DNA of 32,000 nucleotides from Candidatus Hermodarchaeota archaeon (GTDB lineage: Archaea; Asgardarchaeota; Heimdallarchaeia; Hodarchaeales; Hodarchaeaceae): contig JBHLKY010000031.1 of assembly GCA_048886185.1 (NCBI GenBank), positions 7,886 through 39,885 on the forward strand, in the 5' to 3' direction. The notes under the pieces were generated by a model. It was not told the origin of the DNA and made no database searches. It saw only the letters and a program-made list of their open reading frames with translations. Shown here piece after piece: positions 448 to 22,877 of the stretch (position 1 is the first letter of the stretch; each line of letters starts with the position of its first letter). The position numbers and the translations under genes were made by a program.

Positions 448-508
448 AGAAGTCTGTAAGTTAACCAAAGTTATAATACATTATACGTATCAACATACGT
501 ATTTTTGA

Positions 509-525
509 TAACCTATCCAACGCTA
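509..525 (+). repeat. 17-bp dispersed motif, copy 1 (TAACCTATCCAACGCTA)
   Basis: Matches copies at 1653, 4951, 20890 and 22852. Followed by a perfect 16-bp palindrome ATTTTTATATAAAAAT (532-547). Confidence 0.6.
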
Positions 526-724
526 ACTACAATTTTTATATAAAAATGAATGTGAATTAGTTTTAATCTGAGAACTTTTGGTTGGTCTCGAAAAGAGATA
601 CTTCTCGCTACAAGAAGTTTAAACATGATAGCCATTGTATCATATGTTTATTATAATCTCATACTTAAAATTTATATGATGATTACTAGAATCACGAAGA
701 AGAACGAAGTAGAAGGAATATCCA

Positions 725-1573
725 TTGAAATTTATAACACTTAACAACGGAATTAAAATGCCCATATTGGGATTTGGGGTTTACCAGATAAAAGACCCTA
801 AATTATGTGAACAGTGTGTTAGAACAGCGATTGATGTTGGATACCGATTAATTGATACCGCTTTTGCATATGGAAATGAAAACGCGGTTGGAAAAGCCGT
901 TCAGTCAAGCTCAATTCCCCGAGATGAACTATTCATAACTACTAAACTCTGGAGTCCATATGCGAATTATAATAATACCAAACAACAGTTTGAAAAATCA
1001 TTAAACAGGTTAGAAATGGATTATGTTGATCTCTATCTTATTCATCAACCTTTTGGTGATGTGTATGGATCCTGGTGTGCAATGGAAGAACTTTACGAGG
1101 AAGGAAAAATCAGAGCTATTGGTGTTAGCAATTTTTATCCTGATCGTTTAATTGATTTTATACTTCATAATAATATAACTCCTGCAGTTAACCAGGTTGA
1201 GACTCATCCTTTTAACCAACAGATAGAGAGTGAGAAAATAATGAAGGAATATAATGTTCAGATTGAGTCCTGGGGTCCATTTGCTGAGGGAAGAAACAAC
1301 TTGTTCCAAAACGAGGTACTAGCTTCAATTGGTGACAAGTATAATAAATCAAATGCCCAAGTGACTTTGCGATGGCTTATCCAGAGAGGCATAATTGCAA
1401 TTCCTAAATCAGTTCACAAGGAGAGGATAATTGAGAATTTCAACGTTTTTGATTTTGAATTGAACAAGGCAGATATGAGTAAAATTACATCCCTAGATCA
1501 GAAAAAGAGTGCCTTTTTTGATCATAGAGACCCTGAATGGGTGAAAATGTTATCAAATGCTAGACGGGATTAG
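725..1573 (+). CDS. aldo/keto reductase (AKR5 / 2,5-diketo-D-gluconate reductase-like)
   Basis: [20 protein letters not shown] (catalytic Asp/Tyr), [26 protein letters not shown]: the classic AKR motifs. TTG start after a purine-rich GAAGGA. Confidence 0.95.
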
Positions 1574-1652
1574 CACAAGTGGGTATTTTAAGACCAAATA
1601 TGAATAAATACAAGTTAAACGAGAACATAGAGATAAAAATATAGAGGTACAT

Positions 1653-1669
1653 TAACCAATCCAACGTTA
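1653..1669 (+). repeat. 17-bp dispersed motif, copy 2 (TAACCAATCCAACGTTA)
   Basis: 80 bp after the AKR stop; same consensus as the other copies. Confidence 0.55.
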
Positions 1670-1739
1670 AACGACATTAGAATCAAAAAACCATCTAAGA
1701 AGAAAAAGAGTGAAAAAACTCCCTCTTCATTCAAGGCTT

Positions 1740-2984
1740 TTACTGATTGAAGCTAGTGCTTCGTACAGAGCTGTTCTGATGTGTATCGAGCTTGTTCCCG
1801 ATATCGTACGCAAGGGCAGAAAGAATGACTACAAACATCAATCCAAGAGCCAGAAAACCAAAAATCCATTGAATACCATAAGTAATATCCGCGTTAAAGA
1901 ACCACAGTAGAGGATACCCAAAGATTGCGATTTCAACCCCTGTCCAAAAGGTGATCAGGAGTACAGGGACAGACCAAGGCCAAAATTTAGCAAAGAAACC
2001 CCGTACGCGTACAGAGAGATGTGTATCCCACCACGTTAATGGTTTGTTTATCTTAGTTGCTGTAATAGTTGCAAAGATTGAAAAGAATATTGGCCCATAA
2101 CCACCTCCAACTAACCATAGTATTATTGAGAGGAGAAATAGAACCCGCGCACCATATTTCCGGTCAATGAACACCGTTGCCCATATGGTCACTAATAGAC
2201 CGATAATAATTGCTAGGATACCCGTCCAGAAATAGTTTGGTATCAATGTGATAGCTGTTTCGGTCGCATGCTCCCAAAAATTTTGCTCAGGACCAATTGC
2301 ATCTATCCATATGCCATTTGGAGTTACGTTTCCTTGAAGTACTTCTAATATTCCATGTTCTACACCAGCCAGTCCAACAAGAATACCTAATGTTGATGTA
2401 ACCACTCTTGTCGCATTCATGTTGCTCCAATGTAGTTTAAAGTTGTGTAGATTCATCTGTATCATTAATATTCCGTTTTTCTTAATCTTTTGTCCATTCT
2501 GGAGTTGTTTCCAACTAAAAAAGTATATTGTGGTACAAATTATGAGAGAGCCAAATTCACCTAGCAGAACCCCAATTCCTGTGCTCCATACTCCAAGTCC
2601 TAAAGAGAGTGCTCCACCAAAGGGATGAAGTAATGGACTACTAGGGTTATTTGGAAAAATATATGTCATAGGTTGAGAAATAAAGTCAATAACCCAGTGA
2701 CTGAAAACAAGAAGACCGAGGGTTATGCTTGTACGAGAATCACTTGTAAGTCGTAAAGCGATTATTGTTGCAAGCACCGACCAAACGATAGCCATAAAGA
2801 GACTGTGAGACCACGGCGCGGATCCCACTTGGTCTGAGAGTGGGAGCTGTTCAATTCCTACTATCATGAAAATCAAAAAGAGGATGTCAATGAGGTATGC
2901 ACAGAGAATTAACATCCAGACTGATATTCTGGGAGAAATTCTCTTAGAAGCAAGTCCAATTGCCAAATGAGTTAATCCAGCCAT
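1740..2984 (-). CDS. membrane protein: N-terminal YdjM/YbcI-type metal-dependent hydrolase domain fused in frame to a second multi-TM hypothetical domain
   Basis: N-half has THLAIG, LIDIL, WSHSLF and FSHWVID His/Asp motifs in TM helices. The C-half starts near MNATRVV (ATG at 2420) with GVEHGILE and about 5 TMs. The two are joined by a Lys-rich hydrophilic linker. Confidence 0.75.
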   Translation of the reverse strand: MAGLTHLAIGLASKRISPRISVWMLILCAYLIDILFLIFMIVGIEQLPLSDQVGSAPWSHSLFMAIVWSVLATIIALRLTSDSRTSITLGLLVFSHWVIDFISQPMTYIFPNNPSSPLLHPFGGALSLGLGVWSTGIGVLLGEFGSLIICTTIYFFSWKQLQNGQKIKKNGILMIQMNLHNFKLHWSNMNATRVVTSTLGILVGLAGVEHGILEVLQGNVTPNGIWIDAIGPEQNFWEHATETAITLIPNYFWTGILAIIIGLLVTIWATVFIDRKYGARVLFLLSIILWLVGGGYGPIFFSIFATITATKINKPLTWWDTHLSVRVRGFFAKFWPWSVPVLLITFWTGVEIAIFGYPLLWFFNADITYGIQWIFGFLALGLMFVVILSALAYDIGNKLDTHQNSSVRSTSFNQ

Positions 2985-2990
2985 AATTAA

Positions 2991-3974
2991 TCAAATCCGT
3001 TGAATTTGGATCCAATGAAGCGTCTTTTGTAACGATTCTTCCAGAGGCCGAGGTTTCCATCCAAGTTCTCTCTGAATTTTTGAGGTATCGGTATAAATGC
3101 ACGTTTCTGTGGAAATCCTAGCTTCTTCCCTTGTTACTTGTTTTGAGAAAATTGCGAAAATCTTCATGAGTAAGGGAGACATCTGAAATCTAGGTACCTT
3201 TATTTTGGAGGACATTTTATTGAGTAATTGTAAAGTTTTTTTAAACGTAATAACCTCTGTAGCACAGATATAACGACCCTTAGCATCCTTCTTTTCAAAT
3301 GCTAAAATATGAGCTAACGCAACATCCCGAACATCCACAAAATTGAATCGCATAGGGGGGATCATTGGAAGCTTGTTGGCTAGAATGTCTTCAAAAATTT
3401 GAGTAGTAGGGGTATGTCTATGAAAATTAGGCCCGATTATATACCCTGGATTGATCGTAATTAGATCTAAATTGTTTGATTCCGCATATTTCCAGGCCTC
3501 CCATTCTGCTTTATACTTAGCGTAATAGTAGGGGTTTTTTGCTTGATGGTACCAATCATCCTCTGAAAAGGGTTTGTCAGGAGTGGTTCCCATTCCGACT
3601 GCTGCCATACTACTAGTCCATACAATCCGTTTTACACCCGCTTCTTTTGCTGATTTAAGAACATTCAACCCTCCTATCACTGAAGGATCAATAATCTCTT
3701 TCTGGGGGTCTTTTGCAGATAAGGAAAAGACCGCTGCCGTGTGGAAAATGCCATCGACCGCTTCTACCGCTTTTCTGAGCGTCTCGGGTTTCATTAAATC
3801 GGCATCTACGATTTCAACACCAAGATTGAGCAGATGTTTGTTTCTCTCTGTGTTCTGTGAATTTCTAACACCCGCCCGAACATCATAGTTACGAGCTAGT
3901 AACTCTTTTACCAATGTAAATCCAAGATGTCCTGTGGCTCCTGTAACTAGAACCTTTTTTCCGTTTTCTTCCAT
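2991..3974 (-). CDS. NAD-dependent epimerase/dehydratase, dihydroflavonol-4-reductase-like extended SDR
   Basis: VTGATGHLG Rossmann motif, FHTAA, TSSMAAV, YxxxK (YYYAK), NFVDVRDVALAH. Confidence 0.92.
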   Translation of the reverse strand: MEENGKKVLVTGATGHLGFTLVKELLARNYDVRAGVRNSQNTERNKHLLNLGVEIVDADLMKPETLRKAVEAVDGIFHTAAVFSLSAKDPQKEIIDPSVIGGLNVLKSAKEAGVKRIVWTSSMAAVGMGTTPDKPFSEDDWYHQAKNPYYYAKYKAEWEAWKYAESNNLDLITINPGYIIGPNFHRHTPTTQIFEDILANKLPMIPPMRFNFVDVRDVALAHILAFEKKDAKGRYICATEVITFKKTLQLLNKMSSKIKVPRFQMSPLLMKIFAIFSKQVTREEARISTETCIYTDTSKIQRELGWKPRPLEESLQKTLHWIQIQRI

Positions 3975-4012
3975 TTTTAATCACTTTTTTGGTTGTGTTT
4001 GTTTATTATCGA

Positions 4013-4047
4013 AAAGTTTAAAACTTTCAACTAGTGTAAAGTTTAAA
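4013..4047. promoter_or_regulatory. candidate operator/TATA elements between the divergent SDR and TrmB genes
   Basis: 7-1-7 inverted repeat AAAGTTT-A-AAACTTT (4013-4027) and a second AAAGTTTAAA at 4038-4047. Confidence 0.3.
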
Positions 4048-4103
4048 TGTTAAAATAAATTTCAGTAATGAAAAAATAAATTCCAGTTTATTTGGTGATA
4101 TAG

Positions 4104-4928
4104 ATGACTTCCATTGAAAATGAGAATGTATTAGAGAGATATGGCTTAACAAACTATGAATTTGTAGCTTATAAGACCTTACTCCACCGAGGAGCGTGTG
4201 ATGCAAAAGAACTCTCGGATAAATCGAAAGTTCCCACCGGACGAATCTATGATGTGACTGGTTCCTTGGAAGACAAAGGATTGATTGAGATTCAGAAACA
4301 TTCCCGACCGAAACTCTATTCTCCTGTTGATCCCAGTATTGCTATGAAAAATTTATTGGAACGGAAGAAAGAAGAGCTTGAAATCCTTACAGAAAATGCT
4401 TTAGTCATTGAAGATGAGCTAAAGAGGTATCATCGAACAACTCCGAGTGAGAGTCTCTTTTGGAAAATCGGAATTGGGAATGAGGCAATCGACAGATGGA
4501 ATGTTCGTTTAAAAGAAGCACAGAATGAAATTCTCTATTATGGAGAATTTTTTGAAACACCACCTCAAATTCATGCCCAAGAAATCCAAGAAGAAGCAGA
4601 AATATTTGCGGATTTACAGGAAAGAGGAGTAAAAATACGAATGTTATTAGGTACAAAAAATATGGTTGAAACTATGCAAGAAATGTTAGAATTAGTGTTA
4701 CCATTCATTCATAGGCTTAATCTTGATGAAATGCCAGTTAAGTTTACTGAAACGATAACCAATCCCTTCGTGATAATGGATGACGAAAAAGTTCTCATAA
4801 AAATAAAAAATCCCGCCAATTTAGCTGAATATTTTGCGTCGATATATGTCTGGCAACGTAAGTTCGCTACTAGGCTATCATTGAAATATCACGAAATGTG
4901 GAGTAAAGCGGAAGAATTTTCATTATAA
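4104..4928 (+). CDS. TrmB family transcriptional regulator
   Basis: YGLTNYE...AYKTLL, ELSDKSKVPTGRIYDVTGSLEDKGLI, RPKLYSPVDP wHTH, plus a C-terminal PLD-like sensor region (FVIMDDEKVLI). Confidence 0.92.
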   Translation: MTSIENENVLERYGLTNYEFVAYKTLLHRGACDAKELSDKSKVPTGRIYDVTGSLEDKGLIEIQKHSRPKLYSPVDPSIAMKNLLERKKEELEILTENALVIEDELKRYHRTTPSESLFWKIGIGNEAIDRWNVRLKEAQNEILYYGEFFETPPQIHAQEIQEEAEIFADLQERGVKIRMLLGTKNMVETMQEMLELVLPFIHRLNLDEMPVKFTETITNPFVIMDDEKVLIKIKNPANLAEYFASIYVWQRKFATRLSLKYHEMWSKAEEFSL

Positions 4929-4950
4929 AATGCATGGTATTAACTTTTCT

Positions 4951-4967
4951 TTACCTAACCAACGTGT
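4951..4967 (+). repeat. 17-bp dispersed motif, copy 3 (TTACCTAACCAACGTGT)
   Basis: 23 bp after the TrmB stop; same consensus. Confidence 0.5.
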
Positions 4968-5152
4968 ACCCCAGCTAAAAAAGAACTCGAATAGAAAAGT
5001 TATCCGTCCTCGATTATCAATTTCAACTATACCTATCTTTATTCCCATTCCCACTAGAATACCCTCAGATAATTTTATTATCTGTTTGCTGTTTAATTTC
5101 GCATATAATTGAATGATTTAATTAAGTTGGAATTCTCTGAGAATAGGGATCT

Positions 5153-6490
5153 TTACTTTTGTTTTATGCACTCAAAGATTATAAAGAAGGGGATGCGATC
5201 AGTATCAAATGCTAATAGTCTTGGATGGTTCTTTATTACTTCATTATCTGGTTTAGGCTCTACAATTTCTCGAATTAAAAATCCTGCTCCTTTCAGTGCA
5301 GCACTATATTCTGAAAGAGTTCGATCGAACTGCCAGATAGGTTCCATTGAACCCCATGAAATTAAAGTTCCTCCTGAATCAAAATATCTATCTATCATTA
5401 CGTAAAGTCGTTCTTCGTTCCGTGGGGTATCAAAAGGAAGTCGATAAAACAAATTACTAATTCTAGCAAATACAGGATGTAAATTTGACCAAATGAATCT
5501 TCCTTCTAGTTTCAATACGCGAGCGAGCTCTTTAAATGCCTGTTTATAATGTAAAACATCTACAAACACGATATTTGAAATAATTAAGTCAAATTGGTTA
5601 TCATCAATTCTACGAAGATCCTCCAAAGACCAAGTATGATAGTCAATTCCTAATTGCTGTTGTTTTTCTTTATTCTTGCAATAATCAATTAATACCTTTG
5701 ATTGATCAACTCCTGTCACTAAAGCCCCCCTTAACGCAAGAGCTCTACTGAAATACCCATTACCGCATCCTGCATCAAGTACAGATAGGTTATTTACCTC
5801 TCCGATCAATTTCCACATTGCAGGATCAATAATCAACTGTCGATTTATATCCCCAATGTCGTCTTGGGAGGTGTGGTTCACCAGATCTATCCACTGTTTG
5901 CTTGTCTGTTCCCATTGTGCTCGAACATCTGTTTGACTTATAGTAGCTTGATCTAATAAAGGAGAATGGAATTTAACCGATCCGACACGACTCGACATTT
6001 TCTTTCTCTTCGATAATACACCATTAGGAATTTTGAGGGCTTCATCCACTGTGATCTTCTTACCACTTCTAACTTTCTCAGGCTTCCACTTATCTAAATC
6101 TAATATTCCAAATTCCACAGAATGAGTGTATTTTCCCATATCTAGCTGCCATGGATGTTTTCCTTGAAACTCTGAGTAGTACAAATCAAAATGAGGTTCA
6201 TTACAACTCGAACACTGGAAAGAATAGGCATATGTTGTATTCCAAAAGGTAATAGGGTGAAGGACTGGTTTGTTACAATCCCCACATATTAATTCCTGCT
6301 TATTTTCACACCAATAAAGCCAGCTAAAGTGGTGGAATTTTTTACATAGTGAGCACTGGAATTGAGAATGTAATGCACATCTAAACGCAGTATCATCCAC
6401 TGAAAAAGAGCCTAATCTGACGGGGTATGTCGATTCATAGTTCTTGATGATCTTACAATAAAAACACTTTGGAATTGCCTGTGAATCCAT
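5153..6490 (-). CDS. class I SAM-dependent methyltransferase with an N-terminal Cys/His-rich (Zn-binding) domain
   Basis: VLDAGCGNGYFS (motif I), VTGVDQS, FDLIISN, RVLKLEGRF. N-terminal CFYC, CALH, CSLC, CGDC, CSSC. Confidence 0.9.
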   Translation of the reverse strand: MDSQAIPKCFYCKIIKNYESTYPVRLGSFSVDDTAFRCALHSQFQCSLCKKFHHFSWLYWCENKQELICGDCNKPVLHPITFWNTTYAYSFQCSSCNEPHFDLYYSEFQGKHPWQLDMGKYTHSVEFGILDLDKWKPEKVRSGKKITVDEALKIPNGVLSKRKKMSSRVGSVKFHSPLLDQATISQTDVRAQWEQTSKQWIDLVNHTSQDDIGDINRQLIIDPAMWKLIGEVNNLSVLDAGCGNGYFSRALALRGALVTGVDQSKVLIDYCKNKEKQQQLGIDYHTWSLEDLRRIDDNQFDLIISNIVFVDVLHYKQAFKELARVLKLEGRFIWSNLHPVFARISNLFYRLPFDTPRNEERLYVMIDRYFDSGGTLISWGSMEPIWQFDRTLSEYSAALKGAGFLIREIVEPKPDNEVIKNHPRLLAFDTDRIPFFIIFECIKQK

Positions 6491-7010
6491 AAAACTGACC
6501 TCTTAATGAATGCCTTTTATTCTTGTGATTTAGGTAATTTTCAGGAAGTGATTGTTGCTGACTTATGCGGATGATGAATTTATTATCTATGAAATGTCCA
6601 GCTGGGAATCCATAGAAGACTGATTCAGTTTCTATAACCAAATTAGATGAAAAAAGAATAATGGAAATCAAAAGAAATGTTTGAATATAAATAAGAGGGT
6701 TTTTTTCATTAGATCACTCTTCAGAGCATAAAATTATTCAATCAATAATTGAAACTTCCGATTCCATTAAATCGTTACAATAATCAAATCCGGGTTTATT
6801 ATCTATCAGCTACCCCGAAAAATGATGTATTAGAATTTATTGAACTTCTGAAAATTAAATCTGTCGCATTTTCAATCAAATAATATGAACAGATTGATCA
6901 GAATCATTTAAACGAAGTGATTGGAAAATTGCTTGCCGGGTTGTCAGAAAAATAACAAAAAAGTTTCGCGATTCAAAAAAAGAAAACATGTGGGGGCAAT
7001 AAAAAAATTA

Positions 7011-7028
7011 TACTATTACTACTACTAC
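7011..7028. repeat. imperfect (TAC)n microsatellite, intergenic
   Basis: TACTATTACTACTACTAC. Confidence 0.6.
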
Positions 7029-7146
7029 TGTAAATAAACAACACATACCAAAAATAAAATTAAAACTGAAATAGTTAAAGGATTTTGTGAAATAGATTAG
7101 AGAGAATTCATTTGGGGTGCATTAAAAAGACAAAAATTTTCTAGAA

Positions 7147-7644
7147 ATGATGGTGAAAGGAATGGAATTTACCTTAGAAATAATAACAGCAACATTATCA
7201 CCTATAGTCATGATGAGTGCAGTAGGATTAGTCCTCCTTATGATGCAAAATCGATATTCGCGTCTAAAAGATCGAACTTTACTCTATGATCGCTATTATA
7301 ATATTCTAAAAAGTATAGAATCCCCAGAAGAGCATTTAGAAGTAGTAACTAAGATCAGGAATATGTATCTGAATGAAACAAGAGTAGTTAAAAATGCAAT
7401 GATTTTTGCCTTTACGGCAATAGTGTTTGTAATTGTAACATGTATTAGCATTCTTTCACAAGAAGTCTTGACATTAGATTTATCTTATCTTATTATGTTT
7501 AGTTTTATTCTTGCACTTGTGACTATATTAATCACTATTCTAATAATGGCGATTTCGCTTACTATGTCTGTCTCAACAGTTGAATATGAAATTGAGAAAA
7601 TGACCTATGAGATAGATATACAAATCATAAAATTTAGAGAATAA
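7147..7644 (+). CDS. DUF2721-like membrane protein
   Basis: SPIVMMSAVGLVLLMMQNRYSRLKDR matches the DUF2721 N-terminal pattern; 3 TM segments. The start may be the ATG at 7162. Confidence 0.8.
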   Translation: MMVKGMEFTLEIITATLSPIVMMSAVGLVLLMMQNRYSRLKDRTLLYDRYYNILKSIESPEEHLEVVTKIRNMYLNETRVVKNAMIFAFTAIVFVIVTCISILSQEVLTLDLSYLIMFSFILALVTILITILIMAISLTMSVSTVEYEIEKMTYEIDIQIIKFRE

Positions 7645-7661
7645 ATTTAGAGAATAAATTT
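7630..7661. repeat. 13-bp tandem duplication (AAATTTAGAGAAT x2.5) over the DUF2721 stop codon
   Basis: 7630-7642 and 7643-7655 are identical; partial third copy AAATTT. Confidence 0.8.
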
Positions 7662-7776
7662 CCCTATTCAGTTTAGATTTTCCTGTATTCTGGGTTAGAT
7701 AGCACTTAATAGAATTATTAAGAATAAAACTTAAAATAAAACTAGATTTTTGGTAAATTGTAATAGGGGATTCACC

Positions 7777-8445: not shown

Positions 8446-8669
8446 ATAAATATAGAGAGGAATAGAAATATATCCAACGACCAGATCTTCCATAATAAAT
8501 TTGTTCCTTTTATAAACACATTTGAAAAGCATTGATATATTTGTGGATTGCTCTTTTTCTTATAAAATCGATCAGGATGCATGTACGCTAAAGATATGGA
8601 TCATTGGTACTTTTCAAGGAGATTCACTTATAGCTAAATCTAAAAAAGCTGAAATAACAGAAATTGGGT

Positions 8670-9788: not shown

Positions 9789-9915
9789 AAAACTAGCATA
9801 CACTAATGTATCTTTATGTCATATCGCTAGTAAGGTTTCTGATAGGAGTTCTTGAAGCCATAAAGTTCGATTTCATCAATTCGCATTTGGCATGTGATTA
9901 GCCATGATTATAAGC

Positions 9916-14874: not shown

Positions 14875-17800
14875 TTTCTTTTCCTCCGTCTCAAATTGAA
14901 GTAAGATCTGAACTTCGTGAAAAACAGTATGAATATTGCAGTAGTGGTGAGTTCAAATCCAGGGGCCCTTCCGGTTTTGGGTACTACTATGAGTGTAAAA
15001 TCATCTATCGCATAGTTTCCTGACATGTCATAAACAATAAGACGATATTGATACGTATCAAGGGGAAGAGCTGTTATAACAATTTCAATAGATGTTCCTG
15101 ACCATGATCCTGACTGTTCTATATCTCCATTCGGTAACATGATCAATTCATAATGGGAGGGTGTTTCGTCAGTTACTTGCCATGTTAGTGTAATATTGAT
15201 ATTTTCTTCAACTGTAATATCTGGTAGATGAACGAGGATGGGTGGATCGGTGTCTCCCTGAACCGTGACACTTACTGACCGTGATGCATTATTCCCAAAT
15301 GTATCCCATGCAATTATAATGATATTATAATTACCTACAACCAGCCCATCTAAACAAAACTCTACTTTTATATTAGGAGAGGTCCAGGTATGTTCAACAA
15401 TGATAGTATCCGTGCCGATTGAGATCAAATAACCTTGTGGGTGCACATCAAATAAATAGGCGATAATATAATTATTCAAAGTTCCATATGTAAACACAAC
15501 GTCTTGTATTTGTGAAATAGTTGGTGGAAAAGTATCAGCTTCACCGGTAGGGATTACTTCAACAATTGCTATACCAGATGCGCTATGTCCTGCCACATCC
15601 CATACAGTTAAGATGAATTCCCAGGTACCAAGAGGTAACGAGGTATAATGGTATTGAATGATTCCTGAAACCCAAGAACTTTTTTCATAGATGATTGAAC
15701 CATTTCTAGTGATCATATATCGATCTGGATATTTATCATCGACTTCCCAAATAATTGTTCCAGCAGTATTTTCAGCAATAATAGATTTGGCTGGTTGAGA
15801 AACTGTTGGAGGAGTTACATCAGGAGCTTCTGGATTAACCGTGACTATTACTGAACTAGAAGCTGTATTGCTTGCTAGGTCATATAAAGTTAGAGTCACG
15901 TTCCATGTACCAATGGGGAGATGATCAACAGAATAGGAAATATTCTCTCCATGCCAGGGATTGAATAGTTCCTCAGTATCATTTATAAGAATTGTATAAG
16001 CAAACGGATGATTATCAAGACAGATCCAATGAAGAATATGACCAGTTGTCCCTTTTTCAAATTCTAAAGAACCAGGTGGCATGTTAACAGGGGATTCAGT
16101 GTCTGGGACAGCTTCAGTCACATTAACCCATACTACGTCGTAAACCGAGTTCCCTGCTTCATCAAAGAGTGTACAATTATACTTATATAATCCTGTGGCG
16201 ACTCCATCAAGAGAAATTACAATATCATTTCCAATCCAAGCCTTGTCATAAATTAGAGTCATATTCTTTCGGACAGATGCCCACCAGGGTGTCCGATCAT
16301 CTGATCCAGTCCAAATAATTGAATATCCAATGGATCCTTCTTCAAAGCTTACATCATTTGGTGAGGAAATGGATGGAGGTGTTGTATCAGGCGCGGAAGG
16401 GAGTACCCTAATCCATACTTCATCAGAAGAAGTTCTCCCATAAGCATTCTCTACTACACAAGTAAAGTTATGAACACCTTCTTCTAATCCATCAAGCCAA
16501 ACTAATACATAATTTGTCCAAGACCCCGTTCTATAAATTGTCCCATTCCGATAGACCGAATAATTTGCTGGGAAAAGATCTGTAACAGACCAAAGAATAG
16601 AATAACCTGTATCACCATGAAATATGCTAAAATCGCTGGGGCTTGTGATGCTTGGAACACTTAATAAGCAGAAGAAGGATCTTTGTTCAGAAGTGTACCA
16701 ATTATCTAAAATATCCGTTATATAAAGTTGTATCGTATGACTACCAGTAGCGGGAAGTACAATGCTTGTTTTTCCTTCGATTGGTATATAACTCGAATTA
16801 TCTAATGAATAACCGATCCAAGATAAATCTGCAGGTTCACTCCCCTCATTTACTGCCTCGAACCTGTTATCTCCGATGTTATAATTTGGATCCCATGAAT
16901 AACCAAAAGCATCAAAGTATAAATTTGATTGGACTGAATCACCTGTTGATACATGGATTCCTGAACTACTCCCATGATACTGGAATTCTGCATCTGGTGA
17001 TTCATAAATCAAGGTACTTCCATCTGAATCATAAAGTCTTACCCGATAGTGATGCGGAGCTAATCCTGCGTAAGTGCCATCATCTGAGAAATCGATCGAT
17101 AATCGGTACCACTTATTTTCAGAGAAAGTAATACCTGTATCTATAGATGTATTGCCATCAAAATACTCAAATTCGTTATATTCATCAGCAACACGAACAG
17201 TATAATCATATGGAGAGGCTGCTTTCAACAATCCCCAACTAACTCGCCAATTAGTTCCTGGAGCTTCATGTAATACCCAAAATTCGAGTGTTCCTGATGT
17301 AATGACATTATTAAAGAAACCATCGGCAACAAGTATAGGGCCAGCATCATTATCCTTGCAATACAGAACTTTTGAATGGAAATTTCCATAAGCATCTGTT
17401 TTAGAATTAAGAACCTGTATATCAACTGATGTGGGTTGGATACTACCACCCTGCCACCAGCCCCAATTATCAGGTTCAGTACCAACCGAAACATCTTCAA
17501 ATCCTTCAGAAGCAGGATAATAACCTGCCCAGTCTGTTCTAGATTTCGTAGGTGGTTCAAAATCTAGTAGTAATCCTTCTTTTAAATTATCTCCGATATT
17601 ATAACAAGGATCCCAAGAATATCCTAGCGCATCTAAATAAAAGTCATGAAGTGGATTTCCAGATTGAAATTCTATCCCATGAGATCGAAGATCAAAACCA
17701 TAAATGTCAATTGGGGAGCCTTCAAATAGAAATGCGTAGCCACTACCATACCAGGTGTTATTGAGCTGGATCTGCCATCCACCTTGAGTAATGTCGAAGT

Positions 17801-20336
17801 CTACCCGAATATGGAGCCAAGTGTCTTTTGGAAAGACATTAGTTGCAATGGTAGTTTTAGTTGTATATGGTCCATGGTATAAAGCCTTATCCTCAATTCC
17901 AAATTCGATATTGCCACCAGATCCAAGGAGTTTGAACTTAGTTGCATCCAATCCACTATCAGAGTCTTTGTGAAACCAAAATTCGACTGTTCCAATGGTT
18001 GCACTTGATGCGAAATTCTTAGTCATGCCGACTCTATCTTTCCCAAAAGTACCTCTATCTTTCCTCAATTCTACAACATTCTTGTGGCCATAGAATTCTT
18101 CAAGAACTCTCAATTTGCCATATTGTCCTGGATAATATACGCTCCATCCAGACGGAGGATGCCCTGAAATTGTTATATCTGAATAGGGAACACCAACATC
18201 ATCTTCAAAGCCATAAGAGGCTGGATAGTAACCACTCATTGGAGCTGAATAGATTTTATCCTCAGGTGAAATAAGATTAATAGTTTGATTAACAACAGTC
18301 ACAGCTGGTTCTTGTTCTACACATTTTCTAACGAATACCCAATCGACCTGAATACTGGGGGGAGCTAGACCATCATAAGCACAATCATGGTAAGTGCGTG
18401 CTCGTAAAGCTCGACCTACACTCCCAACTGTATCCACAGACCTAACTGCACCACTACACCCCCAACCAGGGCCATAATATGTTGCGTGGGTCAAAATTCT
18501 TATCCCTAGAGGCATATCAGGAATACATGTGCTATTAGTGTGAGTAATAATTGAAGTACCGTTATTATACTGAACTAAAGAATCAGATATCCACCGAATA
18601 TCCCTTGTATCCCAAGTTCGCATGGCAAGAGCATTATCTACTACGAGACTTGCAGTCGCAGCTTTAGTTTGTATCTGATGTCCACGACCTAATGAACCAA
18701 AATTAATGGAATTATTCGTATATGCATTATAAGGGGCTGGAGGTTTAGTTAGGTAAAAATCATTGAAGCCTATTACAGCACCTCCATTTCGTTCATTAAC
18801 ATCATCTATATATGTAGTGACTGTTAATACCCCTCCTGAAACAATTGTTGAACTGTATTGATCATTATCGGTTATCCATTTGCTTGTATTCACAGTAGAT
18901 CCTTCAAAATCATCAAAGAAAATGAACGTGTCATCTCCATCACTTTCAGACGAAGCAGATGGATTACCATAATACATATACAACGAAGAGGTACCTGGTG
19001 AAGGGATCTTAACCCAAATCATTGATACTCCTGTAGGATTCCACGTTTCAATCCAATAACTTAAGGGATTGGTATATATATCATAGAAACGGAGATCACG
19101 CCCATCAAAGTTAGCGAGTGAATAGTCGAAATTATTGGGATTAAGATTTACTTTAATTTGATAATCAGCTTCAGGAGTCGCTGGATCTACCCTGATAAGG
19201 CTTACATGGATGTTATCAACTCTTGCTAATGGTTCTTGTTCTACACATTTTCTAACGAATACCCAATCGACCTGAATACTGGGGGGAGCTAGACCATCAT
19301 AAGCACAATCATGGTAAGTGCGTGCTCGTAAAGCTCGACCTACACTCCCAACTGTATCCACAGACCTAACTGCACCACTACACCCCCAACCAGGGCCATA
19401 ATATGTTGCGTGGGTCAAAATTCTTATCCCTAGAGGCATATCAGGAATACATGTGCTATTAGTGTGAGTAATAATTGAAGTACCGTTATTATACTGAACT
19501 AAAGAATCAGATATCCACCGAATATCCCTTGTATCCCAAGTTCGCATGGCAAGAGCATTATCTACTACGAGACTTGCAGTCGCAGCTTTAGTTTGTATCT
19601 GATGTCCACGACCTAATGAACCAAAATTAATGGAATTATTCGTATATGCATTATAAGGGGCTGGAGGTTTAGTTAGGTAAAAATCATTGAAGCCTATTAC
19701 AGCACCTCCATTTCGTTCATTAACATCATCTATATATGTAGTGACTGTTAATACCCCTCCTGAAACAATTGTTGAACTGTATTGATCATTATCGGTTGTC
19801 CATTTGCTTGTATTCACAGCAGATCCTTCAAAATCATCAAAGAAAATGAATGTGGCATCTCCATCACTTTCAGACATAGCAGTAGGATTCCCATAATACA
19901 TGTGGATCGTGGATGTACCTACATTAGGCACCTTGACCCAAATTATCGATTTTCCAGCAGGATTCCAACTTTCAATCCAGTAACTTAAAGGAGTATTTAA
20001 CGGGTCATAAAAGCGTAGATCACTCCCATCTGGTTTAGCTTTGGAATAATTAAAACTATAAGGATTAAGTATGACCTTAACTTGGTAGTTTGGTTCAGGA
20101 GTAACAGGATCTAATGTTAAATTACTCTCATAACTCCATCCCAAGGGGATATCAGTGATGCTTGCTAAAATATTGTCCTCATGTCTATCATTAGGTGTAA
20201 GATTAATCAGAGTGTTGTTACCTACATTCTCTAAATATATGTTAATACTCAATGTTCCAGAGTAAACAAATAGCACAATTATCCCTATAACAATACTATA
20301 CCTTAGAACAACTTTTCTTGGTTTTATCCAATTCAT
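14871..20336 (-). CDS. giant secreted/surface protein (1821 aa): 2x DUF2341 + beta-sandwich repeat, two inserted lectin/LamG-like cassettes, ~6 Ig-like repeats, PGF-type C-terminal anchor
   Basis: Two DUF2341 signatures (DGxDLRFYD...LSYWIExWNP...IWVKxP...MYYGNP...DGDxTFIFFDDFEG). Ends APGF + hydrophobic + RRRKRK. Many NxS/T sequons. Confidence 0.92.
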   Translation of the reverse strand: MNWIKPRKVVLRYSIVIGIIVLFVYSGTLSINIYLENVGNNTLINLTPNDRHEDNILASITDIPLGWSYESNLTLDPVTPEPNYQVKVILNPYSFNYSKAKPDGSDLRFYDPLNTPLSYWIESWNPAGKSIIWVKVPNVGTSTIHMYYGNPTAMSESDGDATFIFFDDFEGSAVNTSKWTTDNDQYSSTIVSGGVLTVTTYIDDVNERNGGAVIGFNDFYLTKPPAPYNAYTNNSINFGSLGRGHQIQTKAATASLVVDNALAMRTWDTRDIRWISDSLVQYNNGTSIITHTNSTCIPDMPLGIRILTHATYYGPGWGCSGAVRSVDTVGSVGRALRARTYHDCAYDGLAPPSIQVDWVFVRKCVEQEPLARVDNIHVSLIRVDPATPEADYQIKVNLNPNNFDYSLANFDGRDLRFYDIYTNPLSYWIETWNPTGVSMIWVKIPSPGTSSLYMYYGNPSASSESDGDDTFIFFDDFEGSTVNTSKWITDNDQYSSTIVSGGVLTVTTYIDDVNERNGGAVIGFNDFYLTKPPAPYNAYTNNSINFGSLGRGHQIQTKAATASLVVDNALAMRTWDTRDIRWISDSLVQYNNGTSIITHTNSTCIPDMPLGIRILTHATYYGPGWGCSGAVRSVDTVGSVGRALRARTYHDCAYDGLAPPSIQVDWVFVRKCVEQEPAVTVVNQTINLISPEDKIYSAPMSGYYPASYGFEDDVGVPYSDITISGHPPSGWSVYYPGQYGKLRVLEEFYGHKNVVELRKDRGTFGKDRVGMTKNFASSATIGTVEFWFHKDSDSGLDATKFKLLGSGGNIEFGIEDKALYHGPYTTKTTIATNVFPKDTWLHIRVDFDITQGGWQIQLNNTWYGSGYAFLFEGSPIDIYGFDLRSHGIEFQSGNPLHDFYLDALGYSWDPCYNIGDNLKEGLLLDFEPPTKSRTDWAGYYPASEGFEDVSVGTEPDNWGWWQGGSIQPTSVDIQVLNSKTDAYGNFHSKVLYCKDNDAGPILVADGFFNNVITSGTLEFWVLHEAPGTNWRVSWGLLKAASPYDYTVRVADEYNEFEYFDGNTSIDTGITFSENKWYRLSIDFSDDGTYAGLAPHHYRVRLYDSDGSTLIYESPDAEFQYHGSSSGIHVSTGDSVQSNLYFDAFGYSWDPNYNIGDNRFEAVNEGSEPADLSWIGYSLDNSSYIPIEGKTSIVLPATGSHTIQLYITDILDNWYTSEQRSFFCLLSVPSITSPSDFSIFHGDTGYSILWSVTDLFPANYSVYRNGTIYRTGSWTNYVLVWLDGLEEGVHNFTCVVENAYGRTSSDEVWIRVLPSAPDTTPPSISSPNDVSFEEGSIGYSIIWTGSDDRTPWWASVRKNMTLIYDKAWIGNDIVISLDGVATGLYKYNCTLFDEAGNSVYDVVWVNVTEAVPDTESPVNMPPGSLEFEKGTTGHILHWICLDNHPFAYTILINDTEELFNPWHGENISYSVDHLPIGTWNVTLTLYDLASNTASSSVIVTVNPEAPDVTPPTVSQPAKSIIAENTAGTIIWEVDDKYPDRYMITRNGSIIYEKSSWVSGIIQYHYTSLPLGTWEFILTVWDVAGHSASGIAIVEVIPTGEADTFPPTISQIQDVVFTYGTLNNYIIAYLFDVHPQGYLISIGTDTIIVEHTWTSPNIKVEFCLDGLVVGNYNIIIIAWDTFGNNASRSVSVTVQGDTDPPILVHLPDITVEENINITLTWQVTDETPSHYELIMLPNGDIEQSGSWSGTSIEIVITALPLDTYQYRLIVYDMSGNYAIDDFTLIVVPKTGRAPGFELTTTAIFILFFTKFRSYFNLRRRKRK
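16866..18233 (-). repeat. two tandem ~216-220 aa cassettes with conserved ends (GYYPAS[YE]GFED ... DA[LF]GYSWDPxYNIGDN) and divergent interiors
   Basis: Cassette 1 is 17586-18233, cassette 2 is 16866-17525, with a 20-aa linker. End motifs read directly from the translation. Confidence 0.8.
18306..19797. repeat. intragenic direct repeat: 18306-18873 is identical to 19230-19797 (568 bp, period 924 bp = 308 aa)
   Basis: Base-by-base comparison by eye found no mismatch over 568 bp. Scattered mismatches continue to ~18950/19874, then the DUF2341 halves diverge clearly. Confidence 0.95.
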
Positions 20337-20470
20337 GGTTTCTGACTCCCACTTTTAACATGATAAATTCCCTATATGGAATTTAATTTCTATAATGACT
20401 AAATTTCAGGTGTGTGAGGATGTACATGCTTATAGATTCATTGTATTAGCTCTACCACCCTGATCTATTC

Positions 20471-20533
20471 TGCATCGGTTAAGTCATCAAAAATCTGTAT
20501 ATGATCATGAATTATTTATTTATTTTCGCTGTA
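20471..20533. repeat. 63-bp direct repeat, left copy (partner 24434-24496)
   Basis: TGCATCGGTTAAGTCATCAAAAATCTGTATATGATCATGAATTATTTATTTATTTTCGCTGTA; 57/63 identical to the right copy. Confidence 0.9.
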
Positions 20534-20640
20534 CTACCAGGGTCATATTATATTTTTCTTAATTAAAAAAGAAATAAAAGAAATAAATGGCTAGAATCCA
20601 ACAGTAATTCTACAAAAATCTTTTTATTTTATTTACCTAA

Positions 20641-20856
20641 TCGTGCAATGTAGAGGAGAATTTTAAATTAAGCTCAGCAAAGTTTCACAGGACATTAACG
20701 TTAGTAATTTCAACCTTTTTTCTTGGGTTATCATTTAATTGGATTGCCTATCAAACCAAGTCCATAAGGTGGGCTGTTGTTATCCATGTTTTAATTTCAT
20801 TTTTTGCTTTCGGAAAACCCCATATTACTATTCTCTATGATTTATTATTTGCTTAA
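20641..20856 (+). pseudogene. C-terminal remnant of a CPBP family protease
   Basis: Start-less frame ...AKFHRTLTLVISTFFLGLSFNWIAYQTKSIRWAVVIHVLISFF... resembles CPBP motifs 2-4 (FxxxH; G..F.W....TKSIW..I..H). The EExxxR region is absent. Confidence 0.6.
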
Positions 20857-20889
20857 ATTAAGGATACCGATACTTCTATGTAAAATGTG

Positions 20890-20906
20890 TTACTTAACCA
20901 ACGCTA
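20890..20906 (+). repeat. 17-bp dispersed motif, copy 4 (TTACTTAACCAACGCTA)
   Basis: 34 bp after the CPBP-remnant stop; followed by AATTTTTATA as in copy 1. Confidence 0.6.
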
Positions 20907-21065
20907 TTTGCATAATTTTTATATGAAAAAACAGACAAGAAAGTATATATGTCCTAACAGGGAAAGAGCTTCCGAAGAGGACTAATACATGATTAGTAAA
21001 TATTTAAATATTAGGTTTAACAACCCCGTTATGCAACATTGACTTTCAATGACCACTCTCCTTAA

Positions 21066-21435
21066 AATTCTATAAACTATAAAGGGAACTTAATACAAGA
21101 GAAAGGTTTTGACTGGTGTGAACCTGTTTTTCAAATTCAGAACCTTTTTATTTGTGATGAAAATGAAGATTTAAACTTGATCCTTTTCATTCAGATTGCT
21201 ACAAATCCAACTTCGGGATTAAAAGCTTCAACGTCAGTCTACTTTAACATTTACCATGAAATTATTTAGTGTGATTTATCAAGTCCTAATTTCTTTTATG
21301 TATGAGATCTCAATTAAATATGGAATAATCGATAAAACTCCTGTTCTTGTCATTGATAGAGTATTAACATGGCTGAATAATAACAGTTTCTATGAAAAAA
21401 TCGCTGAACTAATAGGAAATGATTTCCATTCTTAA
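21066..21435 (+). pseudogene. possible decayed thioredoxin-fold gene
   Basis: Two overlapping frames: ...KGFDWCEPVFQIQ... (WCxP-like) and 21256-21435 ...KYGIIDKTPVLVIDRV... (like YGxxxTPALVIDG). Resemblance only. Confidence 0.25.
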
Positions 21436-21509
21436 AAAGGGGTCTTATTACGGAATTAGTAATCCACTCGTGTTGATTGGGGTCTGTTTTAGTTTTTAGA
21501 AATGATCTT

Positions 21510-21790
21510 TTTTTTGGCAGGTATACTGTTTGGCCCCTGGTTGAAGAATTAGGAATTATTTTGATGCAGATCTAACACAGCTTTTTGTCTGAGAAATGGA
21601 GAGATGAAAGTGGCAGAGCGTTTCTATTCATCCAAAGCTTTGAACCATCAGAAGAGGAAGAGGAAGCATTTTGAGATTCGAGATCCAAGCAATCATCATT
21701 AAGACCATCCTTTGGTATTCCCTCTTGGGGGTTTTGATTGGCGGATTAGATGTAGGAATATTATTCTTAGTAGACCCCTCTTTCCTTTAA
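21510..21790 (+). pseudogene. possible decayed C-terminus of a surface protein (acidic linker + PSFG + TM)
   Basis: Interrupted frames: WRDESGR...EPSEEEEEAF*DSRSKQSSLRPSFGI, then a shift to SLLGVLIGGLDVGILFLV. Confidence 0.25.
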
Positions 21791-21893
21791 TCACTCCTGA
21801 TTCCCCTTGAAAAATAAAAAAAGATTAGAGAAACTCTCTAATCGCATTGGCCTCTATTATGAAGTGTATATAACGCTCTTAAATAGATATAAG

Positions 21894-22715
21894 TCAAGTA
21901 AGATCCGCTTCTATACCAATCCAGTTCATATCACCCGAGGGAGAACCATCACCCATGATATAAGTATGTGTCATTCGAGTATAATAACTCCAGAAAAAGT
22001 AGTACTTGAAGTATATTATGACTTTAAATCTTACCTTCTCAATGTAAAGCCAATTTTGTTGCCAGCGTCCTCCACCAAAATCCTCATACCAGTACTTGCC
22101 ATTGTCATACAATCTAGCCATATCATTATCCACTGCTAATTTAAAGAGAGCAGTAAATCTGTGGTCTTCATCGCTATTAGAACTTCTAAACCAACCAATG
22201 TAACGATAATCTCCGCTGACAGAATTCTTAGAAGCCTCCGAAGCTGTTGGGTCACCTGTGCAGCTCCAACTAAAACTGTAACCATATACCGTATATCCTG
22301 CAGTCCATGTCCATTGACGTGTCCCTGAAGCCTCATATTCATACGACCCCCATTTTATCATATTCTCTGGGATTGGATCCCAATAATAATGGGTCCAAGT
22401 TTGCGGGGGTTGCCCTGGATAGTCGACATACCTCATTTTATGGCGATAATATGCAGTGACATACACTTTCACCTCGAAACGATCTTCTTCATTTGCGTAG
22501 ACGGTCAAACCATATGACGTAGTCCCACCCTGTGCGTCATCTACATACACTACATCTGCTTGGCACCAGACCTTGGAGTTACTAATTCCAGAACCTAGGG
22601 TCTCAAACCCATATCGTTCGATGTATCCTAGTGCTGGTGTGATCTGTCCAAAGAAAAAAATGAAAGAAATCAATGCAGTGCACAATATCAATTTGATTCT
22701 TCGCTCCAAAATCAT
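21894..22715 (-). CDS. secreted hypothetical protein, Tyr/Trp/Gly-rich, no recognised domain
   Basis: GGAGG directly before the ATG; signal peptide (RRIKLILCTALISFIFFFGQITPALG); uninterrupted 273 codons. Confidence 0.85.
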   Translation of the reverse strand: MILERRIKLILCTALISFIFFFGQITPALGYIERYGFETLGSGISNSKVWCQADVVYVDDAQGGTTSYGLTVYANEEDRFEVKVYVTAYYRHKMRYVDYPGQPPQTWTHYYWDPIPENMIKWGSYEYEASGTRQWTWTAGYTVYGYSFSWSCTGDPTASEASKNSVSGDYRYIGWFRSSNSDEDHRFTALFKLAVDNDMARLYDNGKYWYEDFGGGRWQQNWLYIEKVRFKVIIYFKYYFFWSYYTRMTHTYIMGDGSPSGDMNWIGIEADLT

Positions 22716-22773
22716 TCCTCCTTTTGATATCCCTATTTATAGGGTAATTTGGAGTTCTTCGTGATTACTCTTA

Positions 22774-22795
22774 ACTTTTGAGGACTCTCAAAAGT
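22774..22795. promoter_or_regulatory. 9-4-9 inverted repeat, candidate operator
   Basis: ACTTTTGAG-GACT-CTCAAAAGT, ~60 bp upstream of the secreted-protein start, in the region divergent from the XRE regulator. Confidence 0.4.
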
Positions 22796-22851
22796 GCAAA
22801 TTACATGGAAAAAAATGTATTTTTTTTTACTCTAACGATATATAAAAACAT

Positions 22852-22868
22852 TAACTTACCCAACGCTA
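22852..22868 (+). repeat. 17-bp dispersed motif, copy 5 (TAACTTACCCAACGCTA)
   Basis: Same consensus, followed by AATTTTTA; sits immediately 5' of a start-less gene fragment. Confidence 0.6.
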
Positions 22869-22877
22869 TGTGAATAA

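Follow-up and report, generated by a model that had tools for sequence, protein, structure and literature searches.

The window, that is, the whole stretch of 32,000 nucleotides of Hodarchaeales DNA analyzed here, carries a mosaic of unrelated genes that is divided by copies of a 17-base motif. Five units between these copies, here called cassettes, were delimited. Cassette 1 (523..1666, + strand) contains an aldo/keto reductase (AKR) gene at 725-1573. Cassette 2 (1667..4964) holds a YdjM-like gene and an NAD epimerase gene on the − strand and a TrmB regulator gene on the + strand, and cassette 3 (4965..8479) holds a methyltransferase gene (−) together with DUF2721 and DUF998 genes (both +). 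Cassette 4 (8480..20903) contains a CPBP protease gene (+) plus a pair of giant genes on the − strand that encode 1652 and 1821 aa, and cassette 5 (20904..22865) combines an orphan 273-aa gene (−) with about 1 kb free of ORFs. Positions 20300-22975 had no match in the other genomes of the genus, and the orthologues of cassette 2 in other species had no flanking sites. No tRNA or Rfam matches were found in the window.

The first-pass annotation had reported five intergenic copies of the motif on the + strand at 509, 1653, 4951, 20890, and 22852, and all five (c1 to c5, respectively) were confirmed. Site c1 with its left module spans 465..546 (+), with a degenerate core, CCAAAG, at 465-470 and the true core, CCAACG, at 517-522. 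Two + strand palindromes, both ATACGTAT, lie at 483-490 and 495-502, which is −34 and −22 from the core, and a further box, TTATATAA, lies at 536-543 (+) beyond the right arm. A paralogous contig, C52, resembles this region (83%) up to base 525 and is unrelated beyond. Site c2 (1615..1680, +) includes a gene-less 52-nt unit at 1615-1666 that ends in the core CCAACG at 1661-1666, after which the right arm reads TTAAACGACATT (+). This unit starts after a pseudo-core, ...ACAAG, ending at 1614, where the homology of the AKR block with genome G008 (96%) stops. Site c3 (4951..4967, +; core 4959-4964) lies 23 nt past the TrmB-family gene, between convergent genes. In site c4 (20890..20906, +), the core at 20898-20903 is followed by a TATA-like stretch, and the right side, but not the left, is common to c5 and C35:9122. 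Site c5 (22832..22868, +) has its core, CCAACG, at 22860-22865, a pseudo-core, CTAACG, at 22832-22837, and a box, ATATATAA, at 22838-22845 (+), −22 from the core. Its left module recurs at C39:22900, C40:22795, and C52:8525, where the right sides differ. The weak sixth copy described earlier at 8466-8482 (c6, +; core 8474-8479) proved real and degenerate. It has a degenerate left module like that of c2, scores under the PWM threshold, and is, judged by its sequence, a decayed copy. Two extra degenerate cores on the + strand, CCAAAG at 465-470 and the candidate CCAACT at 31547-31552, each had a PWM score of 18.0, whereas no control exceeded 14.3. The latter lies 17 nt past a 341-aa gene and has the right arm TTATACTACATT; in genome G014, a true CCAACG site comes after this gene. 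Within the window, sites are missing from many block boundaries, including all of those between 22868 and 31547, and this counts against our main reading of the motif.

The 17-base motif forms the center of a full site of about 26 bp, TAACYTAW-CCAACG-TTAWAYGACAT, in which the central 6 bp are invariant and are flanked by a left arm and a right arm. TTAA-like bases lie on both inner sides of CCAACG. The outer TAAC... and ...GACAT are not inverted repeats, and no clear inverted-repeat relation between the two arms was found. The genome contains about 32 copies in co-oriented arrays, and 32/32 are intergenic. One or two 8-bp palindromes, WTAYRTAW, occur in fixed phase to the core, at −34 and −22. 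At least one is present at 16/32 sites compared with 5% of AT-rich controls, and pairs at the fixed phase are present at 7/32 sites compared with 0% of controls. One module family, GAAGTCATTTT x2, is not palindromic. At 6/32 sites, an extra TATA-like 8-mer lies at +14/+15 from the core; the AATTTTTA that had been noticed downstream of three copies is rightly assigned to c1, c4, and c5 and is part of this phased 8-mer. The strict pattern matched nine times in the whole 4.84 Mb genome, nine forward and zero reverse, and its reversed-pattern control matched zero times. The relaxed pattern, WACYWANCCAACGYT, was present in 13/21 genomes of the same genus and in 0/20 outside it, with 0-2 matches per genome for the reversed-pattern controls. 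A shuffle test of the motif was circular because the pattern had been derived from the same five copies tested.

Across the genome, the units between sites are cassettes of 1-12 kb with one to several genes (one to five) in either orientation or gene-less units of 47-165 nt, and the cargo consists of accessory and surface functions. Arrays contain up to nine sites, which are direct repeats on the same strand whatever the gene direction. Paralogous giant-gene cassettes both start and end at sites. As proposed earlier, a stop codon precedes c1 by 96 nt, c2 by 80 nt, and c3 by 23 nt, but this is not general, as the upstream gene was co-oriented at only 18/29 sites genome-wide. The downstream gene was co-oriented at 17/32 sites. 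In a transcriptional explanation, the motif would be a regulon operator, an upstream element, or the TATA-to-start region of a promoter, with no role in recombination. The TATA-like 8-mers at fixed positions (−34, −22, and +14/15) agree with this explanation, as do the co-oriented genes following c1, c5, C31:1196, C52:1393, and C40:22742, and a TATA box at −22 would put the start site at the 3' edge of the core. However, c2 and c3 lie between convergent genes, so that neither has a gene downstream that it could drive, and at 15/32 sites the gene downstream faces the other way. A promoter also leaves co-orientation independent of gene direction unexplained.

Homology between sites was one-sided. 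Among the 31 curated sites of the genome, about 40 pairs had 18-70 nt in common to the left or to the right of CCAACG and 0 nt across from it, and essentially no pairs were alike on both sides beyond the consensus. The same was seen in the closed genome G010, where one left module occurs in four copies with four different right sides; assembly error is therefore not the cause. The homology breaks fell exactly at the core. A 1,744-bp segment (G000 C7:224884-226627) was 99.4% identical between two species, G000 and G010, with each end exactly on CCAACG and unrelated outer flanks, and the orthologous DNA beside it in G010 was 92% identical to G000. Of the 22 genus genomes searched, only these two had the segment. 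Its G000 copy comes from a MAG contig end. Two further cassettes, bounded by cores or degenerate cores, were each found in two species: a TPR gene cassette, 92% identical, with the edges GCAACG| and CCAATG|, and the AKR gene cassette, 96% identical. Cassette 1 of the window matches G008:C56 at this 96% identity and lies there inside an array with an integrase operon at its start. Metagenome contigs showed several divergent continuations immediately past the core at C31:155-159, and a contig from another study had the same right side with a different left module. No recombination product, either circle or excision junction, was seen directly in Logan contigs, where one joint skipping the AKR cassette was weak (side 28).

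The breaks at the core, the co-orientation, the adjoining integrase, and the near-identical, core-bounded cassettes across species strongly support the option of an unnamed recombination or cassette site raised in the first-pass annotation. With a probability that we put at about three in four, the motif forms the core of a genus-specific site for DNA recombination at the borders of swappable gene cassettes, and the adjoining integrase is the proposed enzyme. A 3'-UTR or termination signal, also suggested earlier, leaves both the breakpoints and the gene-direction-independent strand bias unexplained. A promoter likewise accounts neither for a homology break exactly at the core nor for the 99.4%-identical segment in two species, and we consider the purely transcriptional explanation improbable; site modules may carry promoters as a second function. 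The suggestion of a mobile-element end scar does not fit. By this explanation, a small non-autonomous transposon, either a MITE or an IS200/IS605-type element inserting beside a fixed target word, would have left the copies as its ends or scars. The repeated short modules, which measure 47-165 nt and in some cases contain palindromes able to form hairpins, and the single orientation of all modules relative to a fixed 6-mer are what such an element might leave. Yet the copies are alike on one flank and never show both element ends, neither terminal inverted repeats nor target duplications were seen, the GAAGTCATTTT x2 module family is not palindromic, the hairpins are not conserved, and no transposase recurs in the annotated arrays. 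We judge a transposon origin very improbable.

A tyrosine recombinase near the motif, which the first-pass annotation had proposed to look for, was found adjoining the sites. Five integrase homologs with a paired upstream ORF were found in genomes of the genus (G000 C27, G000 C70, G010, G021, and G008), and they are 33-100% identical to the C27 protein. The operon lies 50-350 nt from a site at 5/5 loci, with divergent orientation at three, a co-directional upstream position at one, and a downstream position at one. In G008:C56, six sites lie on the same strand, the first 68 nt from the divergent integrase operon, and in G010 three co-oriented sites come after the integrase. Arrays without an integrase were also present. 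The integrase is 290-297 aa long and matches PF00589 (E 8.8e-29). It has the catalytic R-K-H-R-H/W-Y residues of the tyrosine recombinase superfamily (R144, K182, H244, R247, H271, and Y280), which are invariant in 11/11 full-length family members aligned, and it looks active on the basis of these residues. Its best NCBIfam match is archaeal XerA, NF040815, at 100-106 bits, under the cut-off of 220, and among solved structures the XerC-like protein 4a8e matches it best (E 1.3e-13). The overlapping upstream ORF encodes a partner of 116-156 aa and is conserved at 11/11 loci. Each genus integrase is translationally coupled to this ribbon-helix-helix (RHH)-like protein, whose best fold matches are nearly all ribbon-helix-helix proteins, none significant (E 0.6-3). 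Structure prediction of the integrase-partner complex gave a score of 0.57, compared with 0.00 for the best of three controls, with contact agreement of at least 96% between runs and a partner pLDDT of at least 69. This is weak support for a complex: in benchmarking, the mark was reached by 58/80 solved complexes and 2/110 mismatched pairs, and of those reaching it, only 7 of the 80 solved complexes, but both mismatched pairs, scored at or below 0.60. The small Xer-like integrase and its partner protein probably cut and rejoin the site.

The sites could also be real recombination sites acted on by a housekeeping XerA-type recombinase (G000 C4) or another enzyme, with the integrase operon being just another cassette. 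A second and stronger Phage_integrase match is indeed present at C4:43052-43534 (E 6.7e-46), and Xer-dependent pdif modules and IMEX elements provide a precedent. Close integrases were not found in several site-bearing genomes of the genus, which are incomplete MAGs. A metagenomic integrase 90% identical to that of C27 had no site on its 4.1-kb contig, more distant relatives on virus- or plasmid-like contigs had no such site, and the orientation of integrase to site varies among loci. The integrase could itself be one more cassette of these arrays. On the other hand, all five integrase and partner operons of the genus lie close to a site, though there are only about 30 sites per 4.8 Mb. No other recombinase or transposase recurred in the annotated arrays, and no serine recombinase was found in the genome. 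We regard a different catalyst as unlikely, with a real chance of being correct.

With the adjoining integrase as the preferred enzyme, CCAACG would be the crossover region between two arms. The Xer-like tyrosine recombinase would bind the arms of double-stranded sites and exchange strands within CCAACG, and the RHH-like partner would bind the phased palindromes. Recombination of two direct sites would excise the intervening cassette as a circle, and recombination of this circle with any site would insert it with its orientation kept. Such a cycle would account for the strand bias, for the reassortment of left and right flanks, and for unrelated genes lying together as a mosaic. We give an even chance to the broader proposal that Hodarchaeales own a gene-capture platform that is integron-like but of separate origin, in which a dedicated Xer-like integrase with an RHH partner acts on short double-stranded CCAACG sites, builds up arrays of self-expressed, often multi-gene cassettes, and passes these between species.

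Archaea of the Heimdall/Hod group of Asgard archaea are the closest known relatives of eukaryotes, and to our knowledge very few of their mobile-DNA mechanisms are understood. How Asgard archaea gain and shuffle genes is a central question, for which our findings offer a concrete and testable mechanism. Its elements are a defined sequence of about 26 bp, a two-protein candidate for the recombinase, and a set of identified cassettes, one of them exchanged almost unchanged between species. The mechanism concerns the flexible part of the genome, here with surface giants, redox enzymes, transporters, and regulators. A small recombinase with a compact site is also a possible genetic tool for archaea.

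Several known systems share features with these arrays. Aloposons (Wu et al. 2022, PMC8813620) are mobile elements of Heimdallarchaea that integrate at tRNA genes; their gene set is fixed and comprises giant genes in tandem, which encode 3,000-6,000 aa, as well as a ParA-like ATPase. The Hodarchaeales arrays are likewise mobile DNA of Heimdall-group Asgard archaea with giant genes in their cargo, but have no tRNA-gene integration, fixed gene set, or ParA-like ATPase. As in lambda att sites, with their arm-type sites and small directionality factor, and the SNJ2-type archaeal integrase with its small accessory proteins (PMC5861418), a core crossover site has phased accessory repeats on one side, and an integrase co-transcribed with a small DNA-binding-type protein lies beside the site. 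Unlike these, the arrays have many sites rather than one element bounded by an attL and an attR, they have no tRNA or conserved-gene target, and one core is combined with several accessory repeat sequences. The tRNA-less window and the arrays of up to nine sites do not fit a lambda-type integrative element, and the resemblance of copies on one flank only does not fit a MITE or IS element. Xer/dif-type sites are about 28 bp long, and in them a 6-bp center separates two 11-bp arms in inverted orientation. The pdif modules of Acinetobacter plasmids and Xer-dependent integrating elements (IMEX) have been described (PMC6449649, PMC11705084). They resemble our arrays in their gene modules bounded by short sites for a Xer-family or, in our case, Xer-like tyrosine recombinase, in a 6-bp center between two arms, and in varied contexts. 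However, pdif sites are inverted around the module, with alternating XerC/XerD order, whereas the Hodarchaeales sites are all direct repeats. The proposed Hodarchaeales enzyme is a dedicated adjoining integrase rather than a housekeeping Xer, and the arms are not clear inverted repeats and are accompanied by phased accessory palindromes.

Integrons are the remaining comparison. Their attC sites are imperfect single-strand hairpins of 55-140 nt with R''/L''/L'/R' boxes, most of their cassettes consist of one ORF without a promoter and face the same way, and IntI forms a clade with a specific additional domain. Archaeal integrons have been reported, reportedly with enrichment in Asgard archaea (Ghaly et al. 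2022, PMC9668308). If the present sites were canonical attC, the arrays would be such archaeal integrons, and the co-oriented arrays that begin beside a tyrosine recombinase gene (G008:C56 and G010), as well as the GTTRRRY-like word in CCAACG|TTAAAY, agree with this. The earlier analogy to an attC R'' box was nevertheless not supported. When 81-nt DNA stretches spanning each of the five window sites were folded, for either strand, single-strand z-scores ranged from −1.75 to +1.5 and fell below −1 only for c1 because of its two ATACGTAT boxes, and the loose inverted partners attributed to c4 and c5 found no support, with z-scores near 0. Inverted R''/R' boxes 50-140 nt apart were absent. The integrase reached 59.8 and 69.5 bits with the IntI model TIGR02249 (cut-off 265), the alignment falling into two separate stretches, and 37 bits with NF011946 (cut-off 435). 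We consider canonical integrons extremely improbable. As in integrons, arrays of co-oriented sites separate unrelated accessory genes, some begin beside a tyrosine recombinase gene, others lack an integrase as integron CALINs do, and cassettes are common to several species. Unlike in integrons, the sites are short and have no attC hairpin, the recombinase is not IntI and is coupled to an RHH-like partner, and the cassettes often hold more than one gene, can face either way, and extend to 12 kb, with gene-less units of 47-165 nt being common. Integron-like arrays thus appear possible without attC hairpins or an IntI integrase, and searches that rely on these two hallmarks would therefore overlook systems of this type. 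The Hodarchaeales system is not a canonical integron; it would function somewhat like a bacterial one and is built differently.

The first-pass annotation had reported five 17-mers on the + strand, all intergenic, and all five were recovered at their positions between ORFs. The initial shuffle test was circular because its pattern had been built from the same five copies, and independent tests were used instead. Across all 75 contigs of the assembly (4.84 Mb, 35% GC), the strict pattern gave nine matches: five in the window, which lies on contig C31 (C31:7886-39885), three on contig C52 and one on contig C39. Over the same assembly, the strict pattern on the contigs' reverse strand and a reversed-pattern control both gave zero matches. 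A relaxed pattern was present in 13 of 21 same-genus genomes and in 0 of 20 genomes from neighboring genera, families and orders, with controls giving 0–2 matches per genome. Searches of the window with Rfam (gathering thresholds) and ARAGORN gave no match.

Aligned copies from the source genome and its relatives widened the motif to about 26 bp, comprising TAACYTAW, an invariant CCAACG core and TTAWAYGACAT. Using a PWM plus inspection, 32 sites were curated in the source genome, every one of them intergenic. These sites formed clusters of nine on C31, four on C40, five on C16, two on C7 and two on C39, together with one six-site cluster shared by C52 and C35, two contigs with overlapping ends. 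Inside each cluster, all sites pointed in one direction, independent of the direction of the intervening genes. Degenerate cores (CCAAAG, CCAATG, GCAACG, CAAACG, CTAACG and CCAACT) were also present, and a scan for CCAACG therefore understates the density of the arrays; in the window, such cores account for further copies at 465 and 31547. Palindromes of 8 bp (WTAYRTAW) preceded the core in 16 of the 32 sites, beginning exactly 34 and/or 22 nt ahead of it, with both boxes in seven sites, and six sites carried a palindrome 14–15 nt downstream. At AT-rich control positions, a single box was found in 5% and pairs in none. The left sides, before the core, fell into a few families, such as ATACGTAT ×2, TTATATAA ×2 and GAAGTCATTTT ×2, which recur across several species. 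Viral contigs of IMG/VR were considered as carriers of the motif and rejected, as TAACYWANCCAACGYTAWA gave 20 single matches, close to our own estimate of the chance number for such a degenerate pattern in a collection of that size. These 20 matches lacked the right arm and the palindromes, and their GC contents were unrelated.

Homology between sites broke at the core. When ungapped identity was extended outward from CCAACG for all pairs of 31 sites, about 40 pairs shared 18–70 nt on a single side and had no identity on the opposite one, and essentially no pair was alike on both sides beyond the consensus. The copy at window position 509 and the site at C52:8420 matched at every one of the 70 nt scored ahead of the core and were unrelated from three bases after it. 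Three paralogous giant surface-protein genes, on C31, C52 and C40, showed the converse arrangement, with common sequence beginning at the core and a different left module in each. A promoter upstream element, our first suspicion, and a CRISPR-like repeat-spacer unit, suspected from a 52-nt period, were both dropped after this test. In the closed genome of the same genus, G010, the ATACGTAT module was present in four copies with four different right sides; since this genome is closed and shows the same one-sided pattern, draft-assembly error does not explain the breaks. Where a core ends, exactly at C31:155-159, metagenome contigs from the runs holding the source genome forked into several paths, and a contig from a different study carried another left module before the same right side.

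Other rearranged paths were less clear. Joints 8405 to 9587 (short side of 28 letters, 90% likeness), which would skip the aldo/keto reductase (AKR) cassette at window 523-1666, and 8432 to 9530 (side of 20, depth 2) were too weak to count. Depth over C31:668-6003 versus the rest is a set of per-contig figures that are not readable as strain fractions, and uncovered stretches in the metagenome sets X19 and X5 are no evidence of absence. An alternative assembly path, C68 (joint 145 to 8530), has about 560 other bases in place of C31:146-8529, removing a membrane-protein gene, the giant gene and the site at window position 509. This path occurs in the assembly and in source-run contigs, and C68 is a 92% orthologue of a stretch of G010 ending at a site. 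We rejected it as a clean site-to-site event, given its near-core position at the left end only.

Cassettes bounded by cores have been exchanged between species. A 1,744-bp stretch (C7:224884-226627), which has two internal sites and two genes for proteins of 149 and 213 aa, was 99.4% identical between the source genome and G010, while other genes common to genus genomes share 74–93% identity. It starts exactly at one CCAACG and ends exactly after another, with unrelated DNA outside, and it was found in only these 2 of 22 genus genomes. The G010 DNA adjoining it has a source-genome orthologue, 92% identical over 2,755 bp, and this orthology ends at the same site. Between contig C16 and G008, another genome of the genus, a TPR-protein gene (92% identical) begins directly after a degenerate core in both. 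The AKR cassette of the window had a counterpart in G008 at 96% identity, with homology beginning 10–38 nt past a core and stopping at a pseudo-core; the G008 copy sits inside an array whose start is an integrase. The one-sided homology and the core-bounded cassettes support the original reading of an unnamed recombination or cassette site, and we put at roughly 75% the probability that the motif is a site-specific recombination site bounding mobile cassettes.

The TrmB/YdjM-like, methyltransferase and DUF2721 genes of the window have orthologues elsewhere in ordinary site-free contexts. Given these contexts in other species, the window array is a lineage-specific accretion, which fits its earlier description as a mosaic of unrelated genes. 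Several further features of the window were observed. About 110 nt between the weak motif copy (8466-8482) and a CPBP protease gene (window 8514-8625) were 89–90% identical in two other species, G020 and G011, with no conservation of the surrounding DNA there, and could be a conserved 5' leader or small RNA. An X19 contig from another study (side of 182) joins C31:16521 to 17690, a loss of window 8637-9804 that removes the protease gene almost exactly, with edges off any CCAACG site. The 1821-aa giant gene contains an 884-bp tandem duplication, 91.7% identical (window 18306-19189 and 19230-20113; C31:26191-27074 and 27115-27998). Two copies of a repeat of about 65 nt, with roughly 90% identity between them, lie at 20471-20536, 400 nt upstream of the motif copy at 20890, and at 24434-24499, just before a thioredoxin/SBF/ArsP/ArsR block that is syntenic in G010 and G003. 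In G010 (4.21 Mb), this block (24505-28104) and a DsbD/redoxin block (28662-30285) sit side by side at 88% identity, and the 341-aa neighbor gene (93% identical) lies 270 kb distant there; therefore, the right third of the window was also rearranged, but without CCAACG sites.

The source genome contained three Phage_integrase matches and no detected serine recombinase. One of them, the candidate integrase (297 aa; C27:43050-43943), is preceded by an overlapping 145-aa ORF (42650-43087) and has a site about 100 nt away. Five copies with the paired upstream ORF were found in the genus (C27 and C70 of the source genome, G010, G021 and G008; 33–100% identity), and all five operons had a site at a distance of 50–350 nt. 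Chance is a very unlikely cause of this closeness, given a density of about 30 sites per 4.8 Mb. An array of six sites in G008 starts 68 nt from the operon, and the two are divergent, as in an integron. Members of the family are rare (17 proteins reached E ≤ 1e-10 among 5.8 billion), and all six catalytic residues were invariant in 11 aligned full-length members. The enzyme is Xer-like, scoring 106 bits with the archaeal XerA model (cut-off 220) and 60–70 bits with the IntI model (cut-off 265).

The upstream ORF was conserved at all 11 loci examined. Its protein, modeled as a long helix preceded by two short ones, had no family assignment in Pfam or NCBIfam and no significant Foldseek match (best E 0.59); the top matches were nearly all ribbon-helix-helix (RHH) proteins (CdbA, ORF56, NikR, Arc and ParD). 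The predicted complex with the integrase scored 0.57, with the best of three controls at 0.00. Among solved complexes, 58 of 80 reached that mark, as did 2 of 110 mismatched pairs, but only 7 of the 80 and both mismatches did so at 0.60 or under. At least 96% of contacts agreed between runs, and partner pLDDT was at least 69. This prediction hints at a complex. The repeats bound by RHH dimers are typically spaced by one helical turn, and the 12-bp palindrome pitch would fit such binding.

The integrase operon may itself be a cassette, or the catalyst could possibly be the host XerA-type enzyme encoded on C4. Both readings draw on a 90%-identical metagenomic operon with no site on its 4.1-kb contig, on several site-bearing genus genomes (incomplete) in which no close integrase was found, and on the variable orientation of the integrase relative to the site. 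We give slightly better than even odds that the neighboring integrase and RHH pair is the enzyme. Integrase relatives at greater distance were located on virus- or plasmid-like contigs that lack this site; on the long contigs L049, L050, L051 and L056, relatives at 41–46% identity had no recognizable site of this sequence and may use others. The metagenome contigs L049 (58 kb) and L051 (45 kb) carry operon relatives (42–46% identity) near the contig start, along with a second tyrosine recombinase, many small ORFs and GIY-YIG, STIV B116-like and Spo11/TopoVI-A toprim genes, and could represent viruses or plasmids from related archaea.

No description of this site system was found in the literature searched on Hodarchaeales tyrosine recombinases and on Xer/dif modules in archaea, and the Hodarchaeales are a lineage where such a recombination and cassette system matters. 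Aloposons target tRNA genes (PMC8813620). The pdif modules likewise place Xer-type sites around gene modules, but their sites are inverted and their enzyme is the housekeeping Xer. Integrons are functionally closest: they too have sites in one orientation, accessory cassettes unrelated to each other, and an integrase heading some arrays while others are orphans. The earlier analogy to integron attC was nevertheless not supported, as the sites here have no attC-type single-strand hairpin, the enzyme is not an IntI and the cassettes are multi-gene and bidirectional. Published archaeal integrons retain both the attC fold of bacteria and the IntI domain (PMC9668308), and the system described here is therefore a different one.
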